Sequence record: OM103162.1
Origin: Klebsiella phage KpnP_VR7901
Length of the DNA: 48,366 bases
Strand: one strand, 5' to 3'
Position numbers and translations under genes: made by a program. The notes beneath the pieces are model-generated. The model was not told the origin of the DNA and searched no databases. It saw only the letters and a list, made by a program, of their open reading frames with translations. This document shows positions 8,383-43,959 of this stretch, piece after piece; position 1 is the stretch's first letter, and each line of letters begins with the position of its first letter.

Positions 8383-11300
8383 ATGGCAGAGCTTGACCAG
8401 TTTAACACAGGCGCAACTAATGATTTGGCAGACTTTCAAACTGACGACCAGCTTGCTGCTCCGGTGACGAACGCAAGCTCTAACCAAAACATTGCTGCCC
8501 ATGTATCAATGCTATCATCCAATCCTGGAGATACGGCTGGTACATACAACACCATTCGCGATGAATATGATACGCTTGGCTACAGCCCTACAGCCGATGA
8601 GGTGACTAAGGCTGCTAAGGAAGATAACACACAAGCCTATCGTCGCTCCTCAGCCGATTTCTTAACCAACCCAGCAGTGGCTGATGAGTTTAAAGCTAAT
8701 GCTCTTGCTCGTATCAATGACCCCAATTCTGACTTATATCGTCTACGAGCTATGGTTGGTACGCAGGAAGCAGCGAAACCTGCCCCGAATGAGACGCAAG
8801 AAGCAGCTTCAATGCGCGGGGTGTGGGCAGCAGGAATCAACACTGTTCTTGAATACCAGCGTGAAAAGCAGAAGATTTATAATCAAATGCAGCTGGAGCA
8901 GGACGCTACTAAAACTGCCACCTATGTGGGGATGGCTGAAGACCTTGTTCCAACTGTGTGGGGATACAAAGCTGCATCTCTGGCGCAGGATATTGCGGGG
9001 GGTGGGGTATTATCTAAAATCTGGGGAACAATTCTCCCCGGAGAGGCCACAAAAGAGGCAGCAGACGCGTTTAACAAAATCCCATTTGAACAACGTGCCG
9101 CTGCTCTCCAGAAAGTTGTAGACATGGCTGCTGAACGTGGCTCCACTATCTTCCTCCCAGAAGAGCGTGACCACGCCAACTTCGCCCTTGTGCGTAGTAT
9201 GACTGAAACAGGCGATTTTGATGTCACTGACAGGACTGTTGCCAACGTAATCGGGGTATTGGATGTAACAGGGTTGCTGGGAGCCATTAAACTTGTTGGC
9301 GGGACGGCTGCGGCCGCCACAAGAACATTGCGAGCCGGTGATGACCTAGCGGAAGGGGCCCGGTTTGGAGGAGGTTCCCCAAGAAGGCCGTCTCCTCAGA
9401 CAGACTGGAAAACTGGAAAACAAGAGGGCCCTCGTACATTCGACCAAGAGGGGAATCTGGTTACAGGGAATGAGGTAGCTGTCAGTAATGCCCGTAGGCA
9501 GTTCACCACTACTGATGTACAGCCCACATCTCTCTCGCAGGTAATTAAAGATGCTAATCCAGAAATGGCTCGTAATCTTTTTCAGGCTGTTGAAAAAGAC
9601 ACTACTGGAGATATCGCAAATGGTGCTTTTGGTGCTAGTCGTGAAGATGCTATTGCACATAGCGTCTCCCCTCAAGTAGCCACTGAGAGCGGGTCGGTCT
9701 CCTCCAAGACTTCCCACCCAGAGCGTAACTCTGACTTTGAGTTCATGCCTGATGCTGACGTTATCAACTGGTATTCCAACAGCTCTGGATTCTCCCATCT
9801 CACACTGTCTGAGAAAGCTGCCCTAGACGCTAACGTAACTAATGACTTCATGAACACGCTTGGAATGGTGGCCCGTAAAGAAATGTCTTCTATTTCTGCG
9901 GAAGGGGGGCCTCTTAACATTAAAGCCGTATATGGCCCATCTGACAGCGGATGGTCTAGTGTTAAAGATGCTGTAGACAAGGCTCAGTATGCACTGCGTA
10001 AATATGGCATAACTCAGGATGAGATTGAAATCCTAGTTCGTCGGGGGGATGACTATGCCCCTATATCTAAGGAGGACAAAGCCGCTCTTCTCGCCGGAAA
10101 GGGAGCGGAGCTTAATGGGGACTACCTGTTACAAATTAGCCATAAGTATAACTATGACCACTTAGACTTGGACGCACCGCAGTTCAGTTCTCTGGATGTT
10201 AAATGGAACTATACAGACCGTTTTTCAAAAGCTCCGGGCTCTTCCGGGGAGGGGTCTTTCACCACTAACCTGTTCACTCCCGATTCCATCTACCACCCTG
10301 ACCTAATGAAGGGTGCTGTAGTAGCAGGTACAAGAGGGGCCCGTCTGGAGAAGCTTCTGCACAAAGCTGCCGATGACTTCATCAAAGGAACTAAGACCTT
10401 AAACTGGGGACGTGTCCGAGCCTTGGATGATAAAATCAAGGAGATGAACTTCAAAGGGCAGCCTCTGAATTATGCCCAGTTGCGTGCAGAGGGATTCAGC
10501 CAGAAAGAGATTGGAATGCTCGAAAGCTGGAAGAGCGTACAAGATACTAACTGGTGGCTGAACAACCAAGCTGTTGTGCGTAACTATCAGAAACGTGGGT
10601 ATGGTCTGTTAGAGATTCCAGAGGTAGGTTTCAAGAAAGCTGCCCGGGATTTATCAGCGTCCCGTGTTGCCGATAATACAGCTGTCTACGACGCTCTTAC
10701 AGACACTGTGCGTAATCTGTCCCGTCATGAGATAGATACCCTGTACGCAGAAGGAAAGGCTGTTTCTAAAATGGCTCACTCTATAGATGTGAACGGGGTA
10801 AAAGCTCTGCACGTCATCAACCCTAATGCAGCAGGTAAAGGATATATCAGAGCTTTCCGTCAGGATGATGTAATGCTCAACTATCGTCATGGCTACTATG
10901 CTGTACGCTATAAAGACCCGCACTTCATTGAGCGTAAGGTTACTGATGGCTCAGGCAATGTGTCTTGGGAAGCCATTGCTACGGCGCCCGACGCAGTCAG
11001 CGCCAACAAGTATATGACGAGCATGACAGAGAAAGCCGGTGGTGAATACCGAGTACGTGGGGACTATCGTGGAGGTGACAGGGATAAAGCGGAGGGGCAG
11101 GTAATGCTATCCGGAGGAATGTCTGCAGAGCGTCTACGCGGTAAGCGCTTAGAGAATGCTTACGGGACTAATGCGGGCATGGAACATATGCACATTCAAT
11201 CCCCTTCCGAGAGCTTGATGGCATCAATCAGAGCATTGTCAGACCGAGTGTCTTATCAGAACTGGAGTGATACAGCTAAGGCGCGTTTCATGGCACAGTT

Positions 11301-15265: not shown

Positions 15266-15785
15266 GCGTCTCACTATCGGGGGTGGCTTTCTGGCTGCCT
15301 CAGTGGTGGGAGTGGTGAAACACAATGAGGGGTACAGTGAGAGGGCATACTATGATGGGGCTGGAGTTGCTACGATATGTTACGGTGAAACCAAAGGTGT
15401 TAAGCTTGGCGAGGTCCGTTCTAAATCTCAATGTGACAAACAGCTTCAAGAAAGCCTTGTTGCTCACGCGAAAGTGTTTGATGGCATCCCTTCCTCCACT
15501 CCTGATGTGGTGGCTCTTGGTGTATTAGACATGGCTTACAACATTGGCGTAACAGGCTTCAATAATTCTAAAGTGAAGAAAGCTATCATCAAAGGTGACT
15601 ATCGGATGGCGAGTAAATACGTATTAGAATGGAAGTATATTACGCGTAATGGTAAGAAATATGACTGCTCCATTCCGGGAAACAAAGTGTGCTATGGTTT
15701 GTGGAAGCGTAGGCTGTGGCAGAGCCAAGCTATAGGCAATGGTTTTAAATCCCCACAGGAGGCTCTCAATGCCCTTAAGCGTTAA
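15249..15785 (+). CDS. SAR endolysin (GH24 lysozyme, phage 21 R / P1 Lyz-like)
   Basis: N-terminal weakly hydrophobic Gly/Ala-rich signal-anchor-release segment (LTIGGGFLAASVVGVV). Catalytic E-x8-D-x5-T signature (EGYSERAYYDGAGVAT). Confidence 0.75.
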   Translation: MNTWIKRLTIGGGFLAASVVGVVKHNEGYSERAYYDGAGVATICYGETKGVKLGEVRSKSQCDKQLQESLVAHAKVFDGIPSSTPDVVALGVLDMAYNIGVTGFNNSKVKKAIIKGDYRMASKYVLEWKYITRNGKKYDCSIPGNKVCYGLWKRRLWQSQAIGNGFKSPQEALNALKR

Positions 15786-16104: not shown

Positions 16105-16255
16105 CCGCTATCTAGAACCTACTCCCTACCCGGAGAATGTTCCCACCACCTTTGGTGAATGTGTAAAAGAGGCCATCCCAGACTGGAAGGCCGCATTGGA
16201 TAGTGCTAACGCAGATAAGGCAGCAGCTAGGAAATATCAAGAGGAGATGAACTAA
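16010..16255 (+). CDS. o-spanin (Rz1-like lipoprotein), overlapped architecture
   Basis: Starts in the +1 frame inside Rz. Lipobox LTITLSG-C, Pro-rich mature region. Confidence 0.7.
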   Translation: MKRSRVILVMMCLLTITLSGCSTNYTVSKVPDRYLEPTPYPENVPTTFGECVKEAIPDWKAALDSANADKAAARKYQEEMN

Positions 16256-16536
16256 TGCCTGCGAAGGGACAATATAAGAAGGGGGCTAAACCTGACAGTG
16301 TACGTCAGCGTAAGTACAACTCGTCCCCGGAACAAAAGAAGAGACGTGCAGAACGGAACGCGTCAAGACGTAAGATGGAGAAGGCAGGGAAGGTGAAGAA
16401 GGGGGACGGCAGGGACGTGGACCATCGTAATAAAAATACAGCGGACCAGTCGACTAAGAATCTTCGGGCCCGTTCAGTGAAGGCCAATCGTGCTGATAAC
16501 CGGGGAACCGGTGGACGTAAAAAGGAAAATAAATAA
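16255..16536 (+). CDS. small highly basic protein
   Basis: 93 aa, very Lys/Arg-rich (KKRRAERNASRRKMEKAGKVKKGDGRDVDHRNKN...). ATG overlaps the Rz1 stop. Confidence 0.45.
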   Translation: MPAKGQYKKGAKPDSVRQRKYNSSPEQKKRRAERNASRRKMEKAGKVKKGDGRDVDHRNKNTADQSTKNLRARSVKANRADNRGTGGRKKENK

Positions 16537-26615: not shown

Positions 26616-26800
26616 TTATTCTCCAGTGTAGGGATGTATTCTTCCCATTCGTTTTCAAAGAAACCAGTGTCTAGAGAGTTTACAGAAGCAAAGCCATGTT
26701 CATCAATAGCGTCTGCATTTAGAACAGTTCCTGCTTTTAACACTCGGTTGTTATAATGCCATCCTAAATTAACATCTACAGTTAGAATGATTTCTTTCAT
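26612..26800 (-). CDS. small protein, C-terminal -TLENK
   Basis: 62 aa. Ends CTGGAGAATAAATGA, overlapping the polymerase ATG. Confidence 0.55.
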   Translation of the reverse strand: MKEIILTVDVNLGWHYNNRVLKAGTVLNADAIDEHGFASVNSLDTGFFENEWEEYIPTLENK

Positions 26801-27276
26801 TTCAAAGCCTCTCTCACTTTATTTGCATGGAACCTAACAGTGGTGAAAGGCACCCCAACAATCTCTGTCACTGTACGTAATGCCACTCCCTCCAACAGAT
26901 GTAAATACAGCCCTGTCTTCATTGGCTCTTTATAACGCTCAATAAGCTTTAAGGCATTCTCTGCTGTACTAAGGGCCTTCCATTTATCCTCCACCTCTCC
27001 ACCGAATGTATGATGCTCATCAATCTCTTCAGCGTCAATGCGGTCAGACATATAGTCTTTAATACGATTAAACAATGCAGCCCTCATTAAATATTTAATG
27101 TCATAACGACCATGTAAGCGAGGAGCTGCCTTTAGGAGAGCTTCATACGTATCCATCAGGGCATCCTCTGCCCATAGATTCCCTAATTTATTATTAGCAA
27201 TACGTAGAAGGTTCTTATAATCTGTACGGAAGTTCTCCTCAATCAATCCGTACATAGTGTCTGAGGTGTAAGTCAT
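26797..27276 (-). CDS. ECF-like sigma factor (sigma-70 regions 2 and 4)
   Basis: Region 2-like YLMRAALFNRIKDYMSDR. Region 4 HTH LYLHLLEGVALRTVTEIVGVPFTTVRFHANKVREALK. The start is placed at ATG 27276 (ATGA overlap with the upstream stop); the track ORF extends to 27390. Confidence 0.6.
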   Translation of the reverse strand: MTYTSDTMYGLIEENFRTDYKNLLRIANNKLGNLWAEDALMDTYEALLKAAPRLHGRYDIKYLMRAALFNRIKDYMSDRIDAEEIDEHHTFGGEVEDKWKALSTAENALKLIERYKEPMKTGLYLHLLEGVALRTVTEIVGVPFTTVRFHANKVREALK

Positions 27277-27851
27277 TTTCCGTGCCTCTCTGTGTACCCC
27301 AGTCTGGCGGCAACCTCTGCCCTCACAGAACAAGCCTCTTCGTAGGTGTCGTACTGACCAATACTGATGTTTGACACAATCACCCTCCACTTGCTGTTAT
27401 CTTTTCTAAAATAAACCCCCGTCGCCCCACTACTGTTGTCCTTGCGCTTCTTCATGTTTCGGCTATTAACCTCTACGTTTGCATCTCTAAGATTTACCCA
27501 CCTATTATCATCTCTAACTCCGTTCATATGGTCTACGCATTCAGGCCAAGCCCCCAGCATATACATAAAGGCGAGTCGATGAGCTTGATACTGAAGACCT
27601 TTCATGCCGGGGACGCTGATTCTTACATAACCCTTCCCTGTGATGAATCCAACCTCATCCCCGGCCCTATGATGTTTAGTATCTACTCTCGTGGTAAATA
27701 TGCCAGTCTCTGGATTATAATCCAATACCTCTCTTAAATACTCTTTTGTAATCATAGTTCTGTAAACATCCCATTTGCTTTGTTCCAGTATAAGTTTGTT
27801 GGACCAACTTCTCCGAATTCCCTGTCCTCCAAGAGAACAAGTTGTCGGCAA
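27273..27851 (-). CDS. HNH endonuclease with AP2-like domain
   Basis: VDHMNGVRDDNRWVNLRDA HNH_3-type, then GVYFRKDNSKWRVIV...YDTYEEACSVRAEVAARLGY. Confidence 0.6.
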   Translation of the reverse strand: MPTTCSLGGQGIRRSWSNKLILEQSKWDVYRTMITKEYLREVLDYNPETGIFTTRVDTKHHRAGDEVGFITGKGYVRISVPGMKGLQYQAHRLAFMYMLGAWPECVDHMNGVRDDNRWVNLRDANVEVNSRNMKKRKDNSSGATGVYFRKDNSKWRVIVSNISIGQYDTYEEACSVRAEVAARLGYTERHGK

Positions 27852-30328: not shown

Positions 30329-31058
30329 CCAGCGTAGTGCCTGACAGGCCCGGAGCCGTGTTCACCTCTAACACATAATACTTATCTTCACGAGCATTAA
30401 AGATGAGGTCTACAGCCCCAAAATCAAGTCCTAATGCAGCTACAGCCTTAACAGCCTCCTCAGACGCTACAGGAGAAGCTACAACGCCTTCACGAGCGAA
30501 GATAAACCCACCATCAAGGTTACGCACTTGCCAGTTCACAGCGTCGTCTGGGACGTCACGTTTACGTGCTTTACGCTGAATGTCCACCACTTGCCCCATG
30601 AATACATGGTAACGATATTCTTCCTGCTTTTTCACATAAGCAGTGTAGAGAGGAGCCAGTACAACGGCGTCGCTGTTATCACAAATAACAATACCAGCCC
30701 CGCTATGCCCATTAAGGACAGTGCGGCATACAACGCTTGAGTTAGGAGTATTTTGAAGATATTCACATGCGTCAGCCTTACTTGTGAAGAATGGGGGGAT
30801 AGTGACACCGGCTTCTTGGAAAAGTTCAAAACTTTTTAATTTATTTGAGGCTTTACGAATGGCCTCTGGCTTGTTGAGGATGCGTTGACATGCCATCACT
30901 TGGTCAGGCAATGTGCCAGCTCCCCAATTGATGATAGCTTTTCCCATTCCCCCACGGAACTTGCTGTTGCCATGCTTGATGCGTTTTACGTTCAACGCTT
31001 GAGATAGGAGCTTAGCCCCTTCAGAATGCGGATTGTGTGAATAGATGTACACTTTCAT
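30288..31058 (-). CDS. ATP-grasp ligase (RimK/GshB-like)
   Basis: C-terminal ATP-grasp signature DKYYVLEVNTAPGLSG and a Lys/Gly-rich N-terminal nucleotide-binding region. Confidence 0.65.
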   Translation of the reverse strand: MKVYIYSHNPHSEGAKLLSQALNVKRIKHGNSKFRGGMGKAIINWGAGTLPDQVMACQRILNKPEAIRKASNKLKSFELFQEAGVTIPPFFTSKADACEYLQNTPNSSVVCRTVLNGHSGAGIVICDNSDAVVLAPLYTAYVKKQEEYRYHVFMGQVVDIQRKARKRDVPDDAVNWQVRNLDGGFIFAREGVVASPVASEEAVKAVAALGLDFGAVDLIFNAREDKYYVLEVNTAPGLSGTTLDGYKQRFQEVFNG

Positions 31059-33899: not shown

Positions 33900-33926
33900 G
33901 ATATATTCCTATGTTTGATGATAGCA

Positions 33927-35231
33927 TTAATTTGATAAAGTTTTTACACGGCATCCGGGAAGGAGGCGGCTACGCTGTTCACTAGTTAGCCCCTTGATAT
34001 CTTCCCAACAGGTCTTACAACAAATGTGGGCATCAGGAGAGGTGTAATACTCCTTCACTAACGTGCGGCAATACGAGCAACCCACTTTATAATTGAACTT
34101 ATGAAACTTCACCCCCGCTGGGAGCTGTTCCTCCTTCTTGCTTTCAGCTAAGGCAGCCTCTTCTAAATCCTCTAGCGTATAATAACATTTATCCGCTGTA
34201 TAGATAGAGAGGTATAGCCCAGCCTGTCCTGAATAATTCACTTTAGCAGTGAACACCATTTTATCTTCTGCCCACATCTCAGTGACTAAATCGTCATGAA
34301 CATCCAGCCTTACTTGAGTGATGCGGATAGGAACATCTTTGAGAGTTTTACCGATGATGTCTACATAATTGGCACCGTTCTGTACAAAATCACGGATGGT
34401 GTCCACTGTAAACTCTACAAAGTCACCGGTGTTTACGCCCTCTCTGTCGAGCCATTTGTCTTCTTCTCCCCAGCTTCTGCTGTAATTTCCGTAATAGCTT
34501 CCCGACCACTTTGGGGCTACATACGGCTCAACCTTAGTGGTCGTCCAGTCCACAATGTCGGTTGCTTTTTCAGGGAGAGTAAATTTATAGTGCATATCAA
34601 TCTGCACTTCACGGGGGGGTTCATCAAGCTTTAAGTCTTGACGCCCACAGGCTGCATGAATCATCCAGAATTCAGAAGCCCACACCAGAGTGCGTCCTTT
34701 GTTAGCTGTGCTAAACCACAAAGGGCGCTCTTTATTACGCAGGAAGTTAACAGTGTTGTCTGTCTTATCAATCCACGTTAAGGCGGCTGCTCCGTTTAAC
34801 TTGCCCCACAGAGAAGCTACGCCATTCTGGTTAAGCTCAGAGAATGCAGCTTGGCTATCCACTGCGTATTTCTCTTGCTCGAACAGGGTGTATTGGGAAA
34901 GAAGACTGCCGTTGTGTGCCCCAATAATATTAGGGAATTCAAATGGATGGGCATTCTCCTGAATGATGGCCCCCTTAGTGGCCCAACGATTGTGACCAAT
35001 AAGGATGTGATGCTTCTTAGCCATCAAATCAGAGAAGCCTTTCAAGTCCATGAAATCAACAGCGTTAAGCTTGTCCTTAAACACAGCTGTCTTGAATTCA
35101 TTCCCAATCTTATGCAATGAAGCAATGCCAGTGGAATGCTTCCCACGGATAACATCTAACAAGAGAAGGTCTTTAAACACTTTCTCTTCTTTAAAGGAGA
35201 TGTCTCCTGCCAGTCCAACGAGTCCGCAAAT
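33927..35231 (-). CDS. class II (Ntn) glutamine amidotransferase domain protein with Cys-rich C-terminal domain
   Basis: CGLVGLAGDIS (compare GlmS MCGIVG), LIGHNRWATKGAIIQENAHPF (compare [21 protein letters not shown]), GAHNGSL (compare HNGIIEN). The catalytic Cys codon (35228..35226) lies upstream of the first canonical start (GTG 35180). The only in-frame candidate start is ATT 35231..35229, 7 nt after a GGAGGA RBS. Confidence 0.55.
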   Translation of the reverse strand: MCGLVGLAGDISFKEEKVFKDLLLLDVIRGKHSTGIASLHKIGNEFKTAVFKDKLNAVDFMDLKGFSDLMAKKHHILIGHNRWATKGAIIQENAHPFEFPNIIGAHNGSLLSQYTLFEQEKYAVDSQAAFSELNQNGVASLWGKLNGAAALTWIDKTDNTVNFLRNKERPLWFSTANKGRTLVWASEFWMIHAACGRQDLKLDEPPREVQIDMHYKFTLPEKATDIVDWTTTKVEPYVAPKWSGSYYGNYSRSWGEEDKWLDREGVNTGDFVEFTVDTIRDFVQNGANYVDIIGKTLKDVPIRITQVRLDVHDDLVTEMWAEDKMVFTAKVNYSGQAGLYLSIYTADKCYYTLEDLEEAALAESKKEEQLPAGVKFHKFNYKVGCSYCRTLVKEYYTSPDAHICCKTCWEDIKGLTSEQRSRLLPGCRVKTLSN

Positions 35232-35262
35232 AGTATTATCCTCCGAAAGCCTGTGGCTTTGC

Positions 35263-35517
35263 TTATTTATTTTCTAAAGACAGATTGAAGAATTCAAGGT
35301 CGTCCTCATGGAACCACCAACCCCAGTCTATACCAAATTCTGGAGCGTGTAGGTATACGCTGTTGTATCCGATTCTTTTAACTTCCATGGGAAATCCTGA
35401 CACAGCAGCGCTCATGTTTCTCCCTCCGTCGCCACATTTAATTACTGTGAGGGAGTCGTCCCACATATCCAGAGGTATAGTGCAATATACAATATCCCCC
35501 TCTTTAAACTTGGGCAT
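35263..35517 (-). CDS. small protein MPKFKEGDIVY..., C-terminal -LSLENK (TTA GAA AAT AAA TAA)
   Basis: 84-aa ORF. A GDxV/SH3-like paralogue. Confidence 0.55.
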   Translation of the reverse strand: MPKFKEGDIVYCTIPLDMWDDSLTVIKCGDGGRNMSAAVSGFPMEVKRIGYNSVYLHAPEFGIDWGWWFHEDDLEFFNLSLENK

Positions 35518-36154
35518 ACAGCTCCTCCAGTTTATCGAAATACCATTGCTGACACGGGTGGTCTGAACTTACAAATTCAGGATGGGGTTGATAACAGAAC
35601 GCTTTAGTAGATGGGTAGAAACAAGCCTCCACTTCCACATCTGTATCTACATCCACTACTTCCCCCGGCTCTTCATGTGCAGGGGTCATCATGAATTTAC
35701 GAGAGCTGCGCATAACACTGCTCTTGCCCAACAAAATCCCGCACTCCCCGACAATCATCATCTGGTGGTGGAGAGAGGACACCGGGACCAGCTTACCAGT
35801 CTCTACATCCAGCATGTCATGAGTGCCATGAATGCCATGCCCCTTAACATCCTGATACATGTTACCACCAGACAGGGCATTGAGGAGCTGCCCGCCACGA
35901 CATACACCAGCAAGGAACTTGCCCTTCTGCTTTCCTTCTACAAAGGCTGCATACTCTTCACGGTCACGGCCCGGAGAGGTGTAGGTGGTGGGGTGTTCAT
36001 GTTGATTGTAGAACTTGGGGGAAATATCAGCTCCCCCCGTGAATTGTACAATGTCGGCCTCGTCAATGCTGTCTACGATTGTATAACCGCGCTTAGTGTA
36101 CATTGAATGGAATTGATGGAAGAAGGAAGTGCCTACGATGAATACTTTTTTCAT
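35504..36154 (-). CDS. class I glutamine amidotransferase-like / peptidase C26 (gamma-glutamyl hydrolase-like)
   Basis: Nucleophile elbow GVCRGGQLLN and C-terminal YQPHPEF (the vQfHPE motif). Confidence 0.6.
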   Translation of the reverse strand: MKKVFIVGTSFFHQFHSMYTKRGYTIVDSIDEADIVQFTGGADISPKFYNQHEHPTTYTSPGRDREEYAAFVEGKQKGKFLAGVCRGGQLLNALSGGNMYQDVKGHGIHGTHDMLDVETGKLVPVSSLHHQMMIVGECGILLGKSSVMRSSRKFMMTPAHEEPGEVVDVDTDVEVEACFYPSTKAFCYQPHPEFVSSDHPCQQWYFDKLEELYAQV

Positions 36155-36349
36155 TTATTTGTTCTCCAGGCTGAGGTGATGAATGGATAAGTGATGTTGA
36201 TTGTAGTGGGCAGCGCCTCCTCCCTCCCATTCTACTCTATATTCATAATCCCTTCGGGATTTATAATCCGTACTAGTTATTACCCCGACCTTTTTACCGA
36301 AGTTATTGCTGGGAAATTTAAACAGAGCTAGTTGCGTTGGCTCTACCAA
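36155..36349 (-). CDS. small protein, C-terminal -LSLENK (CTG GAG AAC AAA TAA)
   Basis: 64 aa. Stop followed immediately by the ATG of the GATase I gene. Confidence 0.55.
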   Translation of the reverse strand: MVEPTQLALFKFPSNNFGKKVGVITSTDYKSRRDYEYRVEWEGGGAAHYNQHHLSIHHLSLENK

Positions 36350-36373
36350 TCCCCTACCTTAAACAAGCTCATA

Positions 36374-37765
36374 TTACACCCCGTGCTTCGCCATCCAGTC
36401 TTCAATTAAATCACACACCCGGTCTACGCATTCATCGATAGGAAGCGAAGCCCCCCACTGACCGCCACCTTTAACAGCACTGAGTTTGCTGAACATCTCG
36501 GACTTGTTCTCCTTGAAATCCTTGCTCCACATCCCATCTACGCCATAGTCATTGCTGCCTGACGCATTGAAACTCTCGCTGTATTTCTTCTTACCAGCGC
36601 GTTCGGGGGTGTGTTTGATGAAATTGAGGATGCATTTGTCAGACAGGCCGCTGTTATTCAGGTGACTATGTCCATTCCCCGCCTCTGACATTTTCATCTT
36701 ACCATTTGCGTATTCGCTGGTTTGGCAGCCAAACACAAAGGCAACATCCAGAGGAATGCCCGCTTTGTACAGCTCAAGGAAGCCCTCAGCTCGTGCCGGT
36801 TTCTCCCAGATTTGACGAGTGGCAAAGCAAGCCCCTACAAGAATACAATTAGGAACGTCAGCTGTTAACACATAGCCATATTTCTTAATGTATTCAGGGT
36901 CTTTAGTGAGGAATGCGTCAGCATACGGGCTGTAGCTGGTGAGGTAGGCAATCCACAGGTCAGTGGCTTCCTCACTTGCTTTCCCTTTCACCCAACCGTT
37001 GTTATCTTTTACATCGTTGATGCCGATGGTGGTGACATATGCCACCTTACGCACTGTACATTCACGTTGTAAATCAGCATGACACGCTTGTCCTGTGCTC
37101 TTGCTTACCTTCGTCAACTCTGCGTTGTGACGAGAGAAGGATACGTTAGAACGATGGTTTTCACGTAAAGCGTTGAGCGTAGGTGTCAGCTTGTCAATTA
37201 CCTCTTGATGCTCAACGCTTACAGGCTTTGGGGGCAGAGGCAGCTCTACCGCACCAATTCCCATACGTTCAGCACGAGGAATGCGCCATTCAGGAGCCTC
37301 AGCCGGGAAGATGGAGGACATGAGGAAGTTGTTAGTGTAGGGCTGGTTTGTATCGGGGTCGATGGTTTCCCCTTTATGCCGTAGCAGCGTTAGCCCAAAG
37401 CCCTGTGAGCGCCCATCACGGTCAAGGTGTAGCTCTGCACTGTCAAACTTAAACACCTTGCCTTGCCAGCCCTCAGCTTGCATACGAGGGGTGAAGCGAG
37501 GCCATGCATTGAAGTCGGAGCAGTTGACAACAACGTTCGTATCAGCAGAGGATGGGTCATAGGCCCAAGCCCCCGCTGTTTCAGTGCTAAAACGCAGCTC
37601 TGTCTTTGTGCCTAACACCTGCACTTTAACACTTTTCGCGGCTTTACTAATCACTTTGCAGAACAGGCCATTAGGCACATTCAGCACTTTGCTTTTCGGA
37701 TTGTGAGCTACAATAATCTGGTTCACTTCCAGACGAGCATTAGTGAGCTTTCTATACTGACTCAT
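36374..37765 (-). CDS. hypothetical protein (463 aa) adjoining the ligase cluster
   Basis: Long ORF, no motif recognised by eye. One GATGATAGCATT box lies ~125 bp upstream. Confidence 0.5.
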   Translation of the reverse strand: MSQYRKLTNARLEVNQIIVAHNPKSKVLNVPNGLFCKVISKAAKSVKVQVLGTKTELRFSTETAGAWAYDPSSADTNVVVNCSDFNAWPRFTPRMQAEGWQGKVFKFDSAELHLDRDGRSQGFGLTLLRHKGETIDPDTNQPYTNNFLMSSIFPAEAPEWRIPRAERMGIGAVELPLPPKPVSVEHQEVIDKLTPTLNALRENHRSNVSFSRHNAELTKVSKSTGQACHADLQRECTVRKVAYVTTIGINDVKDNNGWVKGKASEEATDLWIAYLTSYSPYADAFLTKDPEYIKKYGYVLTADVPNCILVGACFATRQIWEKPARAEGFLELYKAGIPLDVAFVFGCQTSEYANGKMKMSEAGNGHSHLNNSGLSDKCILNFIKHTPERAGKKKYSESFNASGSNDYGVDGMWSKDFKENKSEMFSKLSAVKGGGQWGASLPIDECVDRVCDLIEDWMAKHGV

Positions 37766-37901
37766 TAGTCACCTCTTTAGGTTGATTGATTTTAAGGCCC
37801 ACAGGGGCCTCTACAGGACACTTTAGAATGAAGGCATACCATCGTATACCCTCATGGCTTAAAACCGCTCACAATGCTTTACAGAGCGTTTGATGATAGC
37901 A

Positions 37902-38096
37902 TTATTGTCCACGCCCCCACTTGAGTGCAGATTCTATGAGAAACCCCACTAGAGAGATGGGCCAAAGAACAGACGCTAAAATAATACTTAATGTTACAAC
38001 CCCTACGTGGTAACGTGTGTCCTTCATGTTTGCTATGGTGGAGAAAAGCATCCACACAATAATTCCGATGATGTAGATTGTTGATGCCATAATCAC
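37902..38096 (-). CDS. small membrane protein
   Basis: 64 aa, two predicted TM helices. Confidence 0.45.
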   Translation of the reverse strand: MIMASTIYIIGIIVWMLFSTIANMKDTRYHVGVVTLSIILASVLWPISLVGFLIESALKWGRGQ

Positions 38097-38332
38097 ACCT
38101 TATTCAATTCGTTCCCATTGAGAACGATGTTATACGGAAGGTCTGGATGAGCCTTCACATGTTCATCAATCAACGCCTGTACATAATCACTACAGATGCC
38201 GTTAACTACGATGGTGGGTTGACCAGTGCGTTCAATGACACACCCTTCTCCAACTTCCATGTACCCCGGATTTTCGTGTACTACGAACAGGGAATGTAAC
38301 GCTATTGTAATGACAATGAGAGACGTTGACAT
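38093..38332 (-). CDS. small secreted/periplasmic protein
   Basis: 79 aa, N-terminal signal-like segment MSTSLIVITIALHSLFVV. Confidence 0.45.
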   Translation of the reverse strand: MSTSLIVITIALHSLFVVHENPGYMEVGEGCVIERTGQPTIVVNGICSDYVQALIDEHVKAHPDLPYNIVLNGNELNKV

Positions 38333-38340
38333 GATGTCAC

Positions 38341-38670
38341 CTATAATTCATCAGCTACACATGCCAAGACGAATCCTATAATAACGCCCAAAACAACACT
38401 CGCCCTGAATGTTGCCCAGCCCACCTGGCTAGCAGCCTCTTTAAAAACGGAAGCATCCCATGTAACGAACACAGCCCCTATTACGAGGATAATCCTTATC
38501 AAGTATAGCGCAACTATCACGACTGTTGTGCCCAACAGCCAAAGTCCAAAGAACTCTTTCATACCCCACCTCTTAAAAGTATTTCTTACCTTTCTGGTAA
38601 GCTGCCCGTTTACCTGTAGAAGTACGCAGGATGTGAGGAACAAAGTTGAATTGCTCCGTACCATCTTCAT
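38341..38670 (-). CDS. membrane protein
   Basis: 109 aa, three or more hydrophobic helices. Confidence 0.45.
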   Translation of the reverse strand: MKMVRSNSTLFLTSCVLLQVNGQLTRKVRNTFKRWGMKEFFGLWLLGTTVVIVALYLIRIILVIGAVFVTWDASVFKEAASQVGWATFRASVVLGVIIGFVLACVADEL

Positions 38671-38794
38671 TCAGCCGCCCATTGGGCACAGCCACAGTTT
38701 TAACAACCTTGTCGTTGTATTCACGTTCCGCAGAAGGAACGAAGCCAATCAGTTTACGCAGAAGTTTAGATTGTTTATGGCTCATAGTTTTCAC
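38573..38794 (-). CDS. small basic protein
   Basis: 73 aa. Overlaps the 38341..38670 ORF in another frame, so one of the two may be mis-started. Confidence 0.3.
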   Translation of the reverse strand: MKTMSHKQSKLLRKLIGFVPSAEREYNDKVVKTVAVPNGRLNEDGTEQFNFVPHILRTSTGKRAAYQKGKKYF

Positions 38795-39529
38795 CTATTT
38801 AAGTTTATAAAGTTTTTCCCAGCCTGCTAATGTTACGCTGTCTGGGGTTGTTATTTCATACGGCAGTGGGTTAAGGGGTACGCTGTCTTTATTGAACAGC
38901 GGGGATAGGTTTGCAATAAGCTGCATCTCAACGATGTGCATCATGCAATCAGGCAACTGTGTTACCCTTACATCTGTAACTTTGTATCTGATATCTTCGG
39001 TGTAGAACTTAGTGGGGTCGCTCAGATGCACTCTAAGACGGCTTCTCAAATCTAAGGACTTCCCTACATACAGGGGAACATCTCCGCTCCACACCTCATA
39101 CACGCCGCCTAAGATGCACATATCCTCCTTCATCTCTCTCTTTAGGGATGCTGCGGGGATTCTCCAGAGGATTCCTTCTTTGTCAGTGAATACCACCTTA
39201 GCTTGGGCAGGGTAGGGATATCCCTCCGTGGCTGAAGATATGTATTCTATGTCCTCAATGCACCATCCTTGCTTCCTCATCCAAGCTGTAAGCTCTGAGG
39301 TGTACGCAGCCTCATTGAATACCTTAACACGATGTTCCGCGTCATAGCTGGTATTTAGCGTCCCTTTCTCCTCCTTTACAGCCTTAACGGAGGCTGCATA
39401 GTATGACGCGTTAGTTCCAAGGTCTGACGCATGAGACCCATAGTCATAAGGAGCCTGTGCGGAGAGCCTCCCCTCTCCAAATCTTGCGATTTTATCAAAG
39501 AATTTTTTACTCATGTTGTACAAACTCAC
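38795..39529 (-). CDS. GIY-YIG nuclease-domain protein
   Basis: GGVYEVWSGDVPLYVGKSLDLRSRLRVH around residues 140-170 (GIY...YIG...R...H pattern). The domain is unusually central/C-terminal. Confidence 0.5.
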   Translation of the reverse strand: MSLYNMSKKFFDKIARFGEGRLSAQAPYDYGSHASDLGTNASYYAASVKAVKEEKGTLNTSYDAEHRVKVFNEAAYTSELTAWMRKQGWCIEDIEYISSATEGYPYPAQAKVVFTDKEGILWRIPAASLKREMKEDMCILGGVYEVWSGDVPLYVGKSLDLRSRLRVHLSDPTKFYTEDIRYKVTDVRVTQLPDCMMHIVEMQLIANLSPLFNKDSVPLNPLPYEITTPDSVTLAGWEKLYKLK

Positions 39530-39547
39530 GTTTAAAGGTGGATATAC

Positions 39548-39635
39548 TGTATGGGGGATTATAGGGGGGCATCCTTTTAGTCTTTTATTATTTATTTATT
39601 ATCTATTATAATTAATATAATATATAATAGAATGT
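39548..39635. repeat. G-box (GTATGGGGGATTATAGGGGGGCAT) plus AT-rich tract; copy B of the direct repeat
   Basis: Seen directly. Intergenic between the minus-strand genes 38795..39529 and 39672..39869. On the minus strand it reads CCCCCCTATAATCCCCC. Confidence 0.6.
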
Positions 39636-39671
39636 ATGAACGAATGAAATGAGTGAATGGCTAATAGAGTA

Positions 39672-39869
39672 TTAATCTACTCTTTCATAACCTTTATCCT
39701 TATGCCATAACATTAGATACTTTAGGAATGCTTGAGCTGTTAGCTCCGAGTCACTTGCGTTCTCAGAGAGCAACTCCCAGCCTTCACCATCACGCATAAG
39801 AAGGATGATAGCATTCCCTTCCTTGACCAGCTTGCGTACATCACCAGTCTTTTTGTTAGTGAATACCAT
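39672..39869 (-). CDS. small hypothetical protein
   Basis: 65 aa, preceded by the CTGGAGAATAAATAATG cassette. Confidence 0.45.
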   Translation of the reverse strand: MVFTNKKTGDVRKLVKEGNAIILLMRDGEGWELLSENASDSELTAQAFLKYLMLWHKDKGYERVD

Positions 39870-39874
39870 TATTT

Positions 39875-40048
39875 ATTCTCCAGCGTAATGGGTGGATGTT
39901 CTACAACCTCAAAGGTATCTGTACCTTCTTCAAGGTTACGCACCGTAAATACCGATGGATACCAAACGACTTTGTCACTGGAGAGGTACACCCTATCCCG
40001 GCTTACTTTGTAATACTTATGGTTGAGTTTGTTTCTGTAGAGAGTCAT
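39875..40048 (-). CDS. small protein (57 aa), C-terminal -ITLENK
   Basis: Hand-translated MTLYRNKLNHKYYKVSRDRVYLSSDKVVWYPSVFTVRNLEEGTDTFEVVEHPPITLENK. Falls below the 60-aa track cutoff. Confidence 0.5.
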
Positions 40049-40404
40049 TTCTTCTTCTCCAATTGATAGAGGGCCTTACGCATTAATTTAATTTTCATTG
40101 CGTCAGGGATGACATCATGCTTAACAAAGCAATCAAGCTGTGCTTTATGGTTGTTAGCAGCGTTGCTCACCATCACTACGTTCCCTTTTACGTAACCAAG
40201 ATTTGGATTGACGCGTTCAAATGTAGCGTCTTTCAGGTTAATAAAAGGGGTGTCAGTGTATGCGCAATTGCCGTTTCCAAGCATATCAAGCACATCTTGT
40301 GCTGAGAATTGCATGATGTCACATTTCTTATCCTTAGTGGTATTCTTCTTAGCTTGAAACTTCTGGACTAAGAAGTGGAATGGGACATCCGTAAGCAGGT
40401 TCAT
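40045..40404 (-). CDS. hypothetical protein (possible degenerate HNH-like)
   Basis: ERVNPNLGYVKGNVVMVSNAANNHK loosely resembles an HNH core. Weak. Confidence 0.35.
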   Translation of the reverse strand: MNLLTDVPFHFLVQKFQAKKNTTKDKKCDIMQFSAQDVLDMLGNGNCAYTDTPFINLKDATFERVNPNLGYVKGNVVMVSNAANNHKAQLDCFVKHDVIPDAMKIKLMRKALYQLEKKK

Positions 40405-40634
40405 AGCTTAAGCCTCGCTCTTTCCTGTTCCACTTGTTTGCTCACTGCCTTATGACTTCCATAATGTACGTCGCTCTGTCCTGTACTAGATCTAGACAAT
40501 TGAGTGGGAGGAGTGGATTGTTTAAACTTCTTACCACCTTGCTTGTACGTAGTACGCTTAGTGGACGGTTCATTCTTCAATGGCTTGCCCTCAGTGAGGG
40601 GCCATTGGTAGAGGGGTTTAATACGTGGCATCAA
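40401..40634 (-). CDS. small basic hypothetical protein
   Basis: 77-aa ORF in the early block. Confidence 0.4.
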   Translation of the reverse strand: MMPRIKPLYQWPLTEGKPLKNEPSTKRTTYKQGGKKFKQSTPPTQLSRSSTGQSDVHYGSHKAVSKQVEQERARLKL

Positions 40635-40827
40635 TCACCTCCAAATCATCTGGATGGAACATCACCACTTCAGCGCCGTAGACGCAACGACAGCCGTCCT
40701 CTTTGACAATGGCTGTAGGGTATTCAGTGCCTGCTTTAACGTCGCCTAGACGCCATACAGTGCGTCCTATCCACTCTTTGTTATAAGGTTTACGTACACC
40801 AATAACTTTGCATAACATATCAATCAC
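40618..40827 (-). CDS. small hypothetical protein
   Basis: 69-aa ORF in the early block. Confidence 0.4.
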   Translation of the reverse strand: MIDMLCKVIGVRKPYNKEWIGRTVWRLGDVKAGTEYPTAIVKEDGCRCVYGAEVVMFHPDDLEVIDATY

Positions 40828-40959
40828 CTTTCAGCTTGAGGACTATCTCTGCCCTCACTGGAATGTAATAATGGCGGTCAGTACGATTGATGTACGCTTG
40901 AGCCTCTTCTTTAGTGGAGAAGGTTTGCGTATAATCGTATTGGTCATATGTCTTTAGCT

Positions 40960-41112
40960 TTAAAATCCAAACAACCATTTAACACCTCCCCAAAAGAAAG
41001 TGAGAATGCCTTTGATGATTGCGCTGCCTAACAGGAAGTTAAACAGCACAAAGCCGATGGTGCAGGTGGTAAAGAAAGCAATAATGATGATGTTAAAGAT
41101 GAATTGCAACAT
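40960..41112 (-). CDS. small membrane protein (50 aa)
   Basis: The start was moved to ATG 41112, which has a strong RBS (AGGAGGACGGAACATG); the track ORF starts at 41145. Two TM helices. Confidence 0.5.
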   Translation of the reverse strand: MLQFIFNIIIIAFFTTCTIGFVLFNFLLGSAIIKGILTFFWGGVKWLFGF

Positions 41113-41573
41113 GTTCCGTCCTCCTATGTAATTAATAAAGGGCATTGATACCCCTACCGAATACCCTTAGTTAATTATATAGCGTCTCTTATATCAACGG
41201 GCTTTTCTCTCCGATACGTGGCACTCTGTTACGCAGCGGATGGTGACATTGATGATAGCATTTCTCATTGCTACAATGTCCCTAGCGCTGTTGCTTTAGC
41301 ATTGTTTAAAAGGAATTGTTTGTTGGGACGTCTCCCACATAGCCCACTTAGGCAATGAGCTATAGGGAAGAAAGTCAAAAGGCTGTAGCCGCAGGTGTAT
41401 ATGGGAAATAGATGTGAGCGCTATGCTCTGACATACCGCCCTGCAGATTCTCACGCTTTGCTTGAGCCTTATCGAATACGTGATACATACTCTTAGGCAA
41501 TGACTTCTCATTGCGTGACGGGGTGAGATTGGAATTGTAATTAGTGATGTTCATCTTCATCATCCTTTGGGAA

Positions 41574-41657
41574 TTAGTTGATAATATAAGCGTTCAATGC
41601 AATATCTGCAACAATAGCAAACAGCATTACAACGCCTAAGATGTAGAGGATTAGCAT
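41574..41657 (-). CDS. tiny hydrophobic peptide (27 aa)
   Basis: MLILYILGVVMLFAIVADIALNAYIIN. RBS GAGGATTTAGTATTATG. Confidence 0.3.
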   Translation of the reverse strand: MLILYILGVVMLFAIVADIALNAYIIN

Positions 41658-41830
41658 AATACTAAATCCTCGATACGTTCCCACGTGTAACGTGGAGGGA
41701 TACGCTCACTAGCAGATACATATCCCCACCCAACCATGCACATAGTCATTCCATCTACATCTCTTGGGGAAAGCAGGACAGTTCCCTTGTCCTTGCCATT
41801 GGTTAAACGTACACTATCTCCGCGTTTCAT
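41651..41830 (-). CDS. small protein (59 aa, GDxV/KOW-like)
   Basis: Hand-translated MKRGDSVRLTNGKDKGTVLLSPRD.... RBS AAGAGGTGAAACTATG. Confidence 0.45.
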   Translation of the reverse strand: MKRGDSVRLTNGKDKGTVLLSPRDVDGMTMCMVGWGYVSASERIPPRYTWERIEDLVLC

Positions 41831-41911
41831 AGTTTCACCTCTTACATGTGCATGAATACCATACCTTGCGACATTTCTTACATAATATTACATCGCCATA
41901 TGAAAGGATTT

Positions 41912-42472
41912 TCATGCTGCCTTGTCCTGTGCCTGTGCTGCCAGTTCCCCAGTGAGGGCAAGCAAATCATCTACACTAATGCCTCCAGCCATTACAGCCT
42001 TGAGGGCGTCAATAGCTGATACATGCCCGTCTTTCAATGCCTTTTCCGTAGCTTTAGTCAGCTTAGACACGTAGTCCACCGGCTTCGGTTCCATCTGTAC
42101 GTTGTCTTTCTGCCACGTCCAAAGGTCAGCTTCTGGATTAGACAGGAATGCACTTACCTTGTCTGCATATTTGTCGAACTGTTTACCTTTCATCTTGCCG
42201 AAGATAATTTGAGTGTCAACATCCCCTTCTACGCTGAAAGGAGTAAATTCTTTAAAGAAGCGGTTGGCAATACGACGGTTAGCCGGAGACAATACAGCCT
42301 TGCCTGTCTCATCCACACCTAACAGCATGTTAACAGGGCGAACGTCTTTAGTTTCAATTACAAAAGCAATTGCTTCGCGGCTAAACTTGGACAGTTCTGC
42401 CTTGCTGATACGCTCTGATTCACGGATGGTATTGATGGAAGCAATGAGTGTTTCGATAGTAGTTTTAGCCAT
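41912..42472 (-). CDS. first early protein (unknown function)
   Basis: The track ORF starts at GTG 42481. ATG 42472 (MAKTTIETL...) with RBS AGGTGATTATCATG is preferred. It is the promoter-proximal gene of the minus-strand block. Confidence 0.55.
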   Translation of the reverse strand: MAKTTIETLIASINTIRESERISKAELSKFSREAIAFVIETKDVRPVNMLLGVDETGKAVLSPANRRIANRFFKEFTPFSVEGDVDTQIIFGKMKGKQFDKYADKVSAFLSNPEADLWTWQKDNVQMEPKPVDYVSKLTKATEKALKDGHVSAIDALKAVMAGGISVDDLLALTGELAAQAQDKAA

Positions 42473-42512
42473 GATAATCACCTATGTTTGTTGAGGCCGC
42501 GCTATTGGCGGC

Positions 42513-42524
42513 GATGATAGCATT
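42513..42524. promoter_or_regulatory. GATGATAGCATT box (1 of 6 copies; minus-strand reading AATGCTATCATC is an extended -10-like TGcTATCAT)
   Basis: Other copies at 33918..33929, 37892..37903, 41251..41262 and 42921..42932, plus the variant TTCGATAGCATT at 42545..42556. All lie in intergenic positions upstream of minus-strand genes. Confidence 0.45.
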
Positions 42525-42996
42525 CGCAAGACTGAGCTTGCTCATTCGATAGCATTATTTATCTACGCTTGAGAACGTATATTATAGCTCGCTATCTGGT
42601 TAGTTAGGCAGTGTACTAATTCCCCACTGTGCCAGCTAACGAGCTATTGTTATTCGCTCTTATGCTAGACGGCTTTATCTGGTTACTCTTTACATGGAGG
42701 CGCTAGTAACCCCCTTGTATACCTTCCCCATTTAGCCAGTGACTTTCGCTCACCACACGGGCAACGTTTGCTAGACGTTATGTGCCATCAAATTGTCTAC
42801 GCTTACATAAATACTTCTATGTTTTCTGCGTAAAGAGCATACCGCTCACACTTGCAATTATTCATGCACGTATGTGCATGCGTCTAAGGGTTACTGATGG
42901 TGCCTGCATTCTCCGCGCTGGATGATAGCATTTCTTCCGCATCATGCTAACTAGCATATTGAATTGGTCAATGCCGCCGCATCTTGTCCCGCTTGA

Positions 42997-43024
42997 ATAC
43001 TAACAGGTATTAGTTCCTTGTCAG
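42997..43024 (-). promoter_or_regulatory. sigma70-like promoter P2 (cTGACAAG-N16-TAGTAT), leftward
   Basis: On the minus strand: -35 at 43024..43019, -10 at 43002..42997. Confidence 0.4.
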
Positions 43025-43087
43025 TGTGAGCCATATTTTTAAAGAGCGTGTGATTGTCACCAATCACGTTGTTACTGCTTGCAATCT

Positions 43088-43116
43088 ATACTACCTTACT
43101 TCCTACTACTTGTCAA
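43088..43116 (-). promoter_or_regulatory. sigma70-like promoter P1 (cTTGACAAG-N17-TAGTAT), leftward
   Basis: On the minus strand: perfect TTGACA at 43116..43111, 17-nt spacer, TAGTAT at 43093..43088. Confidence 0.45.
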
Positions 43117-43248
43117 GCTAGAATGTTTCCTATTCGGTACACCATTCTATTTAGCAATCAACCCGTGAGTTTTAACGTCTTTATCTTTGACTGATTGGTG
43201 ATTGCCTTGCTTGCTGTTTGTGTTCACAAGTTGCCTTGCTTGCTTACT

Positions 43249-43276
43249 AATATACACTAACCATTCCCCTTGTCAA
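43249..43276 (-). promoter_or_regulatory. sigma70-like promoter P3 (gTTGACAAG-N16-TATATT), leftward
   Basis: On the minus strand: TTGACA at 43276..43271, TATATT at 43254..43249, preceded by TG. Confidence 0.4.
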
Positions 43277-43959
43277 CATTCTTTTTCATTCTTTCTATAA
43301 ACGTAGTGACGACAACATAAGCAACATACATATCATGCTCAGTGCCAAAGGCAAAGCTATCCCCAGCATAAGCTTGGATAGTGTCATCATCACTAGCGTC
43401 AACCTCTATTAACCATCTGGCCATAATCACCTCACGTGCACGTTAGTGCGGCAGCAGTAGCTCAGAGTCACTACCTTTCCTCCTCGCAGTAGTTTCGTGT
43501 CGGCACTGCCTCCACTCAAGCAATAGCCCGTGTGCCAATGCACACAACATATACCATATAGACGCATGGCTGATGCCATGCACGTATGTATATACAGGGG
43601 CATAAGAGAATGTGCAAGCTTGCTTGCGTCTATATGGCGTAAGTGTATGACGCATAAAGAGAAATAGGGAAGGAAGGGTGAATGAATGCAGGACGAGAGG
43701 CCTGGCTATCCATACACCACTGTAAATTTGAACAGGGGTAGGCTGGAAGTCGACAAGGGGGTGTACGGGGGGACGAGGTTAGGTGCATTACCCCTCCAAA
43801 TTTTCTCACAAAAATTCTCCACTATCCAAAATTTCAATGACGCCCCGTTCCAATGGGCATACAATGTGGCCTGTTCTTTTCCTGGCCTATAGACGCATCT
43901 TCGATGCACGTGCAGCTTAGCTGCGTTTACGCGTAAGTGAATAAAGGAGTAAAAGAAAA

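Follow-up and report, generated by a model that had tools for sequence, protein, structure and literature searches.

The genome of Klebsiella phage KpnP_VR7901 (sequence record OM103162.1; 48,366 nucleotides, analysed at full length and referred to here as the window) carries a short, asymmetric sequence, the box, that recurs in this phage and in all of the relatives that we examined. We tentatively favour the interpretation that the box, AAWGC^TATCATC(AA), is recognised by a sequence- and strand-specific endonuclease, encoded by the phage, that would produce both localised nicks and a boundary of the terminal repeat. A nick or cut site of this kind, including one at a genome end, is more likely than a simple promoter. 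It is supported by a DNA end that maps within the first copy of the box, by the nick sites of Pseudomonas phage tf, which share its strandedness, copy number and placement, and by the all-or-none character of the motif, together with a placement that is unlike that of promoters of adjacent genes. Lesser support comes from the multiple termini that PhageTerm gave for the related phage Asterion, from the artefacts that nicks can cause in PhageTerm analyses, from homology breakpoints at boxes, and from the HNH and GIY-YIG genes that the phage encodes.

The window is a complete, circularly permuted, Citrovirus-like podophage genome, with 93% identity to Klebsiella phage vB_KpnP_Klyazma (Zobellviridae, Citrovirus; hereafter Klyazma) and 90% to Asterion. 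Its early and replication genes are on the minus strand, from about 42470 down to 18320, and its structural and late genes are on the plus strand, from 43960 to the end and then from 1 to about 18100. The word AATGCTATCATC, which is the minus-strand reading of GATGATAGCATT, has seven exact copies in the window, compared with none in 100 dinucleotide-preserving shuffles. Six are on the minus strand (42921, 42513, 41251, 39804, 37892 and 33917) and one is on the plus strand (8508), and there are three variants, AATGCTATCGAA at 42545 (minus) and AAAGCTATCATC at 30930 (minus) and 15579 (plus). A previous, sequence-only reading of this DNA had located the variant at 42545 and five exact copies; these positions stand, except that the copy given as 33918 is off by one. 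The inventory was, however, incomplete, having missed the exact copies at 39804 and 8508 and both of the AAAGCTATCATC variants. The sites that it did list are intergenic, as it had proposed, lying 17-448 nucleotides 5' of the next start codon, whereas the other four lie within open reading frames (ORFs). The gene starts that it placed close to copies are correct for 33899, 37765 and 42472; for 41112, the nearest ORF start that we find is at 41145.

Box copy 1 (42921..42932, minus strand) is located downstream of the early sigma70 promoter cluster and corresponds to the junction between unique sequence and right long terminal repeat (LTR) in Klyazma. Its extended flank, ...AAGAAATGCTATCATCCAGCGCGG, is kept in the relatives L011 and L015. 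So is the palindrome ATGCTAGTTAGCAT (42944..42957), in which two inverted left half-boxes lie 11 nucleotides upstream of the copy. This palindrome is formed by the TAGCA/TGCTA partners that had been noted from the sequence near 42921; partners also exist near 41251, where AATGCTA and TAGCA half-sites lie upstream of copy 3. The AATGCTATCGAA variant (42545..42556, minus) is 32 nucleotides upstream of copy 2 (42513..42524, minus), which has the ATG of the first early gene (42472) 40 nucleotides downstream and a mosaic breakpoint nearby. Copy 3 (41251..41262, minus) is intergenic, 105 nucleotides 5' of the ORF that starts at 41145, and copy 4 (39804..39815, minus) lies within a 65-residue ORF (39672-39869), where it is read in the frame N-A-I-I and is syntenic in Klyazma, Asterion and L011. 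Copy 5 (37892..37903, minus) is 126 nucleotides 5' of a 463-residue ORF, at the exact point where homology with relatives breaks. Copy 6 (33917..33928, minus), syntenic in almost every relative, takes up the interval between the stop codon of the amidotransferase gene, whose TAA overlaps the box, and the ATG of the COOH-NH2 ligase gene (33899). Within ORFs, the variant AAAGCTATCATC(AAT) at 30930..30941 (minus) lies 117 nucleotides into the ATP-grasp ORF, while on the plus strand an exact copy in the 1603-residue internal-virion-protein ORF (8508..8519) and the variant AAAGCTATCATC(AA) in the endolysin ORF (15579..15590) are both co-directional with the late genes and kept in Klyazma and Asterion.

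Several features of these copies deserve mention in their own right. The ATG in the intergenic boxes at 42921, 42513, 41251, 37892 and 33917 opens a mini-ORF of 7-15 codons starting MLSS, and a purine-rich, Shine-Dalgarno-like flank lies upstream of these boxes. In the relatives L013, L016, L017 and L018 a small, conserved early gene (MLSSKP...) is annotated as starting at this ATG. An explanation at the level of the peptide, whether through MLSS mini-ORFs or through N-A-I-I, was rejected because the frames vary among copies and synonymous positions are fixed. Homology with Klyazma, Asterion and L011 breaks at the box at 37892 (window 37904-38076) and around 42513/42545 (42495-42585), a coincidence that places boxes at mosaic, or recombination, junctions.

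The sequence-only reading had called for a search of related phages, and this was carried out as a ten-genome comparison in which the early regions of eight relatives were retrieved through homologues of the 463-residue ORF (39-80% identical). Box-like sites in the ten genomes number 74 on the sense strand of the early genes and two on the other strand, and the two are the window sites at 8508 and 15579. None is antisense to local transcription, which bears out, in a more general form, the observation that the box is oriented with the minus-strand genes that it precedes. Each of the eight further relatives has between four and nine copies, all on the early-sense strand. Seven exact copies of AATGCTATCA, again all early-sense, are present in Citrobacter phage CVT22, in which the sigma factor has only 31% identity. 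Boxes are syntenic between the window, Klyazma and Asterion, and the syntenic copies among relatives include those that precede the COOH-NH2 ligase gene and those that lie in the ATP-grasp gene and the 463-residue ORF.

The consensus that emerges is rraAAWGCTATCATCAAt, with a core word, AAWGCTATCATCAA, of 12-14 bases. Over 73 sites, no variation is seen at A0, A1 and C4-A9; T2 occurs in 54 (A in 18), G3 in 68, T10 in 69 and C11 in 58. Ten positions are thus invariant or nearly so, despite identities of only 39-80% for the anchor protein. No information content was found upstream of these sites, where a -35 element would lie (-40 to -5 relative to the box), or downstream of them, and a comparison of flanks among the window copies likewise found nothing conserved; the absence of a conserved -35 element, noted at the outset, therefore extends to the relatives. 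Degenerate variants of the core were tested for enrichment and none was enriched, implying that the motif is all-or-none. The box motif does not appear in the searchable literature, where a search for the motif string matched only unrelated mouse polymerase chain reaction primers. A scan of IMG/VR for the 14-mer AATGCTATCATCAA gave single chance matches only, among the matches listed, and a search of the same database for related loci with the 463-residue protein gave near-identical contigs only.

Placement relative to genes was classed for 56 sites in the eight metagenomic relatives. Twenty-five sites (45%) lie within ORFs and 22 (39%) are intergenic; in five (9%) the ATG of the box is the annotated start codon, and in four (7%) a start codon abuts the 3' edge of the box (GGA-AATGCTATC-ATG), so that start codons are overlapped at 9/56 sites (16%) in total. 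Since only 13% of the scanned sequence is intergenic, the intergenic enrichment is about 3-fold. Two sets of intragenic sites keep their position between genomes. In the ATP-grasp gene, the window and six of the eight metagenomic loci have a site 117 nucleotides into the ORF, with the next start about 635 nucleotides away; a second group lies about 75 nucleotides into the 463-residue ORF, about 1300 nucleotides from the next start. At the ATP-grasp site the codons of the box, GCT ATC ATC AAT, are each represented by one codon in all eight genomes, whereas the neighbouring conserved Gly, Lys and Phe residues use two to five synonymous codons, implying that selection acts on the nucleotides. Neither upstream terminators nor flanking RNA or DNA hairpins were enriched around boxes over controls, and Rfam gave no match at the gathering threshold in the whole window.

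A pointer to function comes from the ends of the Klyazma genome. Its GenBank record annotates terminal repeats of 711 bp at 1-711 and 49588-50298, the termini having been determined by its authors with PhageTerm and outward Sanger reads. The repeat begins GCATTTCTTCC..., and its boundary, GATGATA^GCATT, falls in the first box, at AATGC^TATCATC; it corresponds to the junction between 42927 and 42928 in the window, so that a break at box 1 would start the repeat at 42928. The chance that a random boundary would fall within one of seven 12-bp boxes is about 0.002. The other Klyazma boundary, CATGGC^TATCCATAC, corresponds to the junction between 43706 and 43707 (...TGGC^TATCCATAC, window 43701..43715, plus strand, matching the right LTR boundary), and from this correspondence the repeat in the window is predicted to span 42928-43706 (779 bp). 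A GC^TATC hexamer is flush with both cuts, in inverted orientation, with its GC halves pointing into the repeat. The ends of phage phiEco32 have a different appearance: both boundaries of its 193-bp terminal repeat read GCT^AG (GTGCT^AGCC and CGGCT^AGGC; L007 1-10, L008/L020), which is the signature of a cut site in direct repeat rather than of an inverted pair.

The Klyazma authors also reported a big drop in Sanger signal exactly at the junction in box 1, "especially from the right end". The read from their Right_term-F primer (48994-49014, plus strand) copies the minus strand, which carries the box. A repeat of 711 bp is unusually long, those of other family members being 74-138 bp. PhageTerm applied to Asterion returned termini that were "Redundant, multiple", and nicks are known to give PhageTerm peaks that can be mistaken for termini (PMC7291057). 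The contig ends of metagenomic relatives were checked as independent termini, and none was at a box.

A close parallel is provided by Pseudomonas phage tf, in which 14 nicks have been proven experimentally at TACT^RTGMC, all on one strand and 11 of the 14 in the early half of the genome (PMC3517423). These nicks were found as drops in Sanger signal on native DNA, and their positions are conserved in LUZ24 and PaP3 (PMC3517423). We find from the tf record that the nick sites sci1, sci4 and sci11 are exactly on start codons, that sci8 is in the ATP-grasp gene and sci7 in the amidoligase gene, and that some of the remaining sites are near gene starts or ends. The two phages also share an early module at 25-41% identity, which comprises COOH-NH2 ligase, amidoligase, amidotransferase, ATP-grasp protein, primase/helicase, polymerase and 5'-3' exonuclease. 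The tf motif and the box are each the top k-mer of their genome, short, asymmetric and near-invariant, with about 7-14 copies. Like the box, the nick sites of tf and LUZ24 are strand-specific, concentrate in the early half on the early-sense strand, keep their positions between genomes, and fall on start codons or in genes of the ATP-grasp/amidoligase module. The nick sites of T5 and phiKMV-like phages are a looser parallel. In our comparison, the copy number, strictness, strandedness and placement of the box appear to fit the tf nicks better than they fit the promoters of phiEco32.

From these patterns we infer nicking at the other copies of the box, the strand that would be cut and the identity of the enzyme. 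The endonuclease would bind the asymmetric 12-14-bp word at every occurrence, the copies being mostly early-sense and 0.4-4 kb apart, and would break a single strand between AATGC and TATC, or else the complementary strand at GATA^GC. The outcome would be localised single-strand interruptions in virion DNA, as in tf and LUZ24, T5 and phiKMV. The first copy, which has additional half-sites beside it, and the weaker inverted GC^TATC some 0.7-0.8 kb away would mark the boundaries of the terminal repeat, and with sites at both boundaries the same cleavage chemistry would take part in forming the genome ends. A candidate for the enzyme, possibly acting with terminase, in nicking or in end formation, is a conserved small HNH-type protein of 93 residues (16255..16536, plus strand) in the late cluster, whose same-position counterparts, orf020 of Klyazma and gp21 of CVT22, bear the annotation "putative endonuclease". 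The GIY-YIG protein encoded at 38795-39529 on the minus strand is unlikely to be the nickase, since Asterion lacks the gene and has the boxes. That protein has similarity to the N-terminal domain of Cho/UvrC (E = 1.6e-7), its gene is present in the window and Klyazma, and it is probably a mobile homing endonuclease.

A number of observations weigh against a nicking endonuclease. The right-end read of Klyazma crosses another exact box (49130-49141, about 120 nucleotides from the primer) and no drop was reported there, so that the minus strand is unlikely to be nicked at high frequency at all boxes; nicking may instead be partial or affect the complementary strand, or box 1 may be the only one cleaved. 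The two window-lineage copies at 8508 and 15579 switch strand with late transcription, a departure from the single-strand pattern of tf, T5 and phiKMV that suggests a connection with transcription. As an extended -10 element the box is very good, a sigma factor is encoded by the phage itself, and intergenic regions are enriched in sites. A nuclease shared with tf was sought by tblastn and none was found, and Asterion has the boxes although the GIY-YIG gene is absent from it. There are also differences from tf itself. The tf motif is 9 nucleotides long, compared with 12-14 for the box, and unrelated in sequence; its nicks are proven, whereas those of the present clade are putative; it has no nick site at the terminal-repeat boundary, where the box has one copy; and the box clade also encodes a sigma factor.

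Could the box simply be a promoter? As a -35-independent middle promoter, the single element AAWGCTATCATCAA would direct transcription that starts a few bases downstream. It might be read by the phage sigma factor, in the mode of phiEco32 gp36 or T4 gp55, or by host sigma70 using TGnTATCAT, possibly with -35 recognition disabled by a phage factor. We regard this explanation, the main rival, as rather unlikely, although it has much in its favour. Box orientation always matches local transcription, and the window copies that lie 17-126 nucleotides 5' of the ATGs at 33899, 37765, 41145 and 42472 are placed where promoters might be expected, in keeping with the 3-fold intergenic enrichment. Extended -10 elements (TGnTATAAT) include the -35-independent middle and late promoters of phages that disable sigma region 4, such as P23-45. 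As the sequence-only reading had recognised, the box holds a near-consensus element of this type, TGcTATCAT, which matches sigma70 determinants at T-15, G-14, T-12, A-11, T-10, A-8 and T-7 and has no -35. T-12, A-11 and T-7 are essentially invariant; the TAnnnT hexamer is present in 69/73 sites, G-14 in 68/73 and T-15 in 54/73, with AAAG and AATA variants that are conserved and seem to be functional.

Recognition by host sigma70 of an extended -10 element is nevertheless insufficient on its own. The invariant bases A-17, A-16, C-13, C-9 and C-6/A-5/A-4 of the box, among them A0, A1, C4 and C8 in the numbering of the consensus, are not sigma70 determinants, whereas the TG is dispensable in about one third of sites, its T being replaced in 19/73 and its G in 5/73, and is missing from most sites of the lineage L016, which has mostly AAAG. 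Appropriation of sigma70 in the manner of a MotA box was rejected for want of a conserved -10 element 11-13 nucleotides downstream of the box.

For a phage sigma factor, a model is phiEco32, which the Klyazma authors place next to this family. Its gp36 promoters consist of a single element, tAATGTAtA, in which AATGTA is centred at -11.5 and read at A-14, A-13, T-12 and G-11 (PMC12276001). The resemblance to the box lies in a single element that starts AATG, with no specific -35; AATG is common to both, and no part of the box is more invariant than its AA. phiEco32 and the window share an amidoligase module, lack an RNA polymerase of their own and encode a small sigma factor. No phage RNA polymerase is annotated in Klyazma, whose authors state that the family lacks one. 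The distribution of sites is quite different, however. The validated phiEco32 promoters are few, more degenerate and all intergenic, and the two that we checked lie about 35-40 nucleotides 5' of the start codon, whereas the box is longer and far stricter, is intragenic or on start codons in about half of its sites, and is never found before late genes. No over-represented strand-specific 10-mer was found in the phiEco32 genome.

Nor does the phage sigma factor resemble gp36. This 159-residue protein (26797..27276, minus strand) matches profiles over both sigma2 and sigma4. Its family profile, searched against the PDB, finds RpoE (1or7) at E = 2-4e-5 across both domains, as well as SigW and SigH but no gp36 chains; TIGR02937, sigma70-ECF (extracytoplasmic function), is matched at E = 4.8e-6 and Pfam Sigma70_r2 weakly; and direct comparison with gp36 by hhalign gives a probability of 0.3-2.7%. 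By these profile matches the protein is a two-domain ECF-type factor that is not detectably gp36-like. A promoter of the gp36 type was rejected on these grounds, with no homology found between the sigma factors, AATG alone in common and a site distribution unlike that of phiEco32.

An ECF-type factor whose sigma4 domain is complete would be expected to depend on a -35 element, and no bipartite -35/-10 arrangement of ECF style, with a spacer of about 16-17 nucleotides, was seen at the boxes, there being no information from -40 to -5. A separate candidate for an ECF-type bipartite promoter, or alternatively for a pac or ori element, is a single-copy block, AAGGGGGTGTAC-N16-RTGCATWG...CCTCCAAATTTTCTCACAAAAATT (43755..43816, plus strand), upstream of the late operon. 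It is kept in six lineages that include Klyazma, CVT22, L013, L017 and L018, with a spacer that is variable in sequence but fixed in length, and is followed by a conserved leader. The suggestion that the box is a promoter for a phage sigma factor was thus right in that such a factor is encoded, but the factor is ECF-type rather than gp36-like and has a separate late block as a possible target; it is possible but strained.

Other aspects of placement are also difficult to reconcile with a promoter. No box was found upstream of the late operon in any genome; sites within ORFs, up to 1300 nucleotides from the next gene, make up 45% of the total, and 16% overlap the very start codon that they would serve. 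A search for terminator-promoter modules gave none, nearly all of the boxes are upstream of the sigma gene, and a DNA end within the box is not what a promoter predicts. A further point in favour of a promoter is that, besides its sigma factor, the phage encodes an Srd-like "decoy of sigma70". This 119-residue protein (window 40045-40404, minus strand) matches the PHROG "decoy of host sigma70" (E = 4e-32) and the Srd anti-sigma factor (9e-12), and it may be a host-takeover factor that acts on RNA polymerase or RNase E.

The strict co-orientation with transcription could alternatively mean that the box is a signal in the non-template strand for elongating RNA polymerase, either a sigma-dependent pause site or an ops-like loading site, with the first copy doubling as a concatemer-junction signal that recruits terminase. 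We consider this improbable. It would account for the lack of a -35 element and of any fixed register to genes, and for copies that lie within ORFs or shortly after the start of a gene. Strong sigma70 promoters are located upstream of all copies, and three such promoters face the early genes from the 1.5-kb non-coding region that separates the two gene clusters (42997..43276, minus strand; inside the repeat and upstream of box 1). These promoters read TTGACA-16-TATATT, TTGACA-17-TAGTAT and CTGACA-16-TAGTAT with TG. Sequences that resemble a -10 element in transcribed DNA are known inducers of sigma70 pausing. In T7, the class II pause signal ATCTGTT reportedly lies 3 nucleotides inside the repeat boundary, and pausing there is said to be needed for concatemer processing. 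Box 1 is similarly oriented with transcription and only a few bases from the repeat boundary, on the side that faces the early genes and is downstream for early transcription, and the packaging module of this phage is T7-like. The T7 signal is, however, single-copy and is recognised by a single-subunit polymerase, an enzyme that this phage does not have, whereas the box is multi-copy and only the host polymerase is available to read it. No case of 7-9 sites of this kind in one operon is known, the invariant positions exceed what sigma70 reads, no NusG/RfaH-like or Q-like factor was identified, and the support is entirely inferential.

A more speculative combination, which we hold to be very unlikely, is that the box stalls or captures the host holoenzyme, which then recruits the packaging nuclease to form the genome end at the first copy and a nick elsewhere. 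If true, this would be the host-polymerase equivalent of concatemer-junction pausing in T7, and it could explain why tf-like nicks are early-sense and close to gene starts, given the common early module.

With every copy on the sense strand, the box might instead act in RNA, as a site at which early mRNAs are cleaved or bound, in the manner of RegB, RegA or boxA, or it might be an operator for a phage regulator; these roles, too, we judge very improbable. Many copies lie in translation-initiation regions, either in the interval between Shine-Dalgarno sequence and ATG or containing the ATG, and the flank upstream is purine-rich. There is a loose likeness to rrn boxA, TGCTCTTTAACAA (9/13 with one gap), but the boxA core GCUCUUUA is unmatched. 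No conserved structure surrounds the box, the register to start codons varies, and a role in RNA leaves the DNA end within the box unexplained. Operator function, as the sequence-only reading had also suggested, finds local support in L016 and L017, where a TTGACA...TAACAT promoter has the first box in its 17-bp spacer, but it requires neither the strict strandedness nor the invariant intragenic copies and leaves both unexplained. In that arrangement (L016 3808-3836 and L017 5172-5200) the box, as AAAGCTATCATC, fills the spacer of a canonical sigma70 promoter to give TTGACA-gg-box-gtg-TAACAT or TAGCAT. In L013, a TTGACA-17-TATGAT promoter begins 10 nucleotides after the box. Resemblances to Chi, the DnaA box, IHF sites, ops and rolling-circle nick sites were considered and dropped for lack of a match.

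To our knowledge, the role of sequence-specific nicks in phage genomes such as those of T5, phiKMV and tf has gone unexplained for decades. The box, in a clade of enterobacterial podophages that can be grown in the laboratory, with one copy at a terminal-repeat boundary and with clear relatives that do and do not have a sigma factor, offers a tractable system in which nick function might be addressed. Any nuclease that acts at the box would be of practical interest as a rare-cutting, strand-specific nicking enzyme, and its existence would call for re-examination of the published 711-bp repeat of Klyazma. Should the box be a promoter, it would mark out the regulon of a new ECF-like sigma factor of phage origin or represent a new class of -35-independent promoter. 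Either way, it is missing from the annotations of these Klebsiella and Citrobacter phages, some of which are considered for therapy.

Finally, some minor features of these genomes were noted. The primase/helicase gene is intact in the window (27752-29407) but is split by an inserted HNH endonuclease gene in Asterion (L001 13900-16231) and in the L005/L015 contig (L005 7668-9999; L015 13179-15510). The contig L016 runs on, at 93-2036, into bacterial-looking genes (Pro_isomerase, Ribosomal_S30AE and PAP2), which could mean that the assembly is chimeric or that the element is integrated or adjacent. A highly conserved translation-initiation word, TGGAGAATAAAT(A)ATG, is the commonest 12-mer of the window, with eight copies across the genome, for example 5' of many minus-strand genes. 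This word has its own version in other lineages, TGGAGAACAAATG in L012, GGAGAATGAAT in CVT22 and L018, and GGAGAACGA in L015 and L016.

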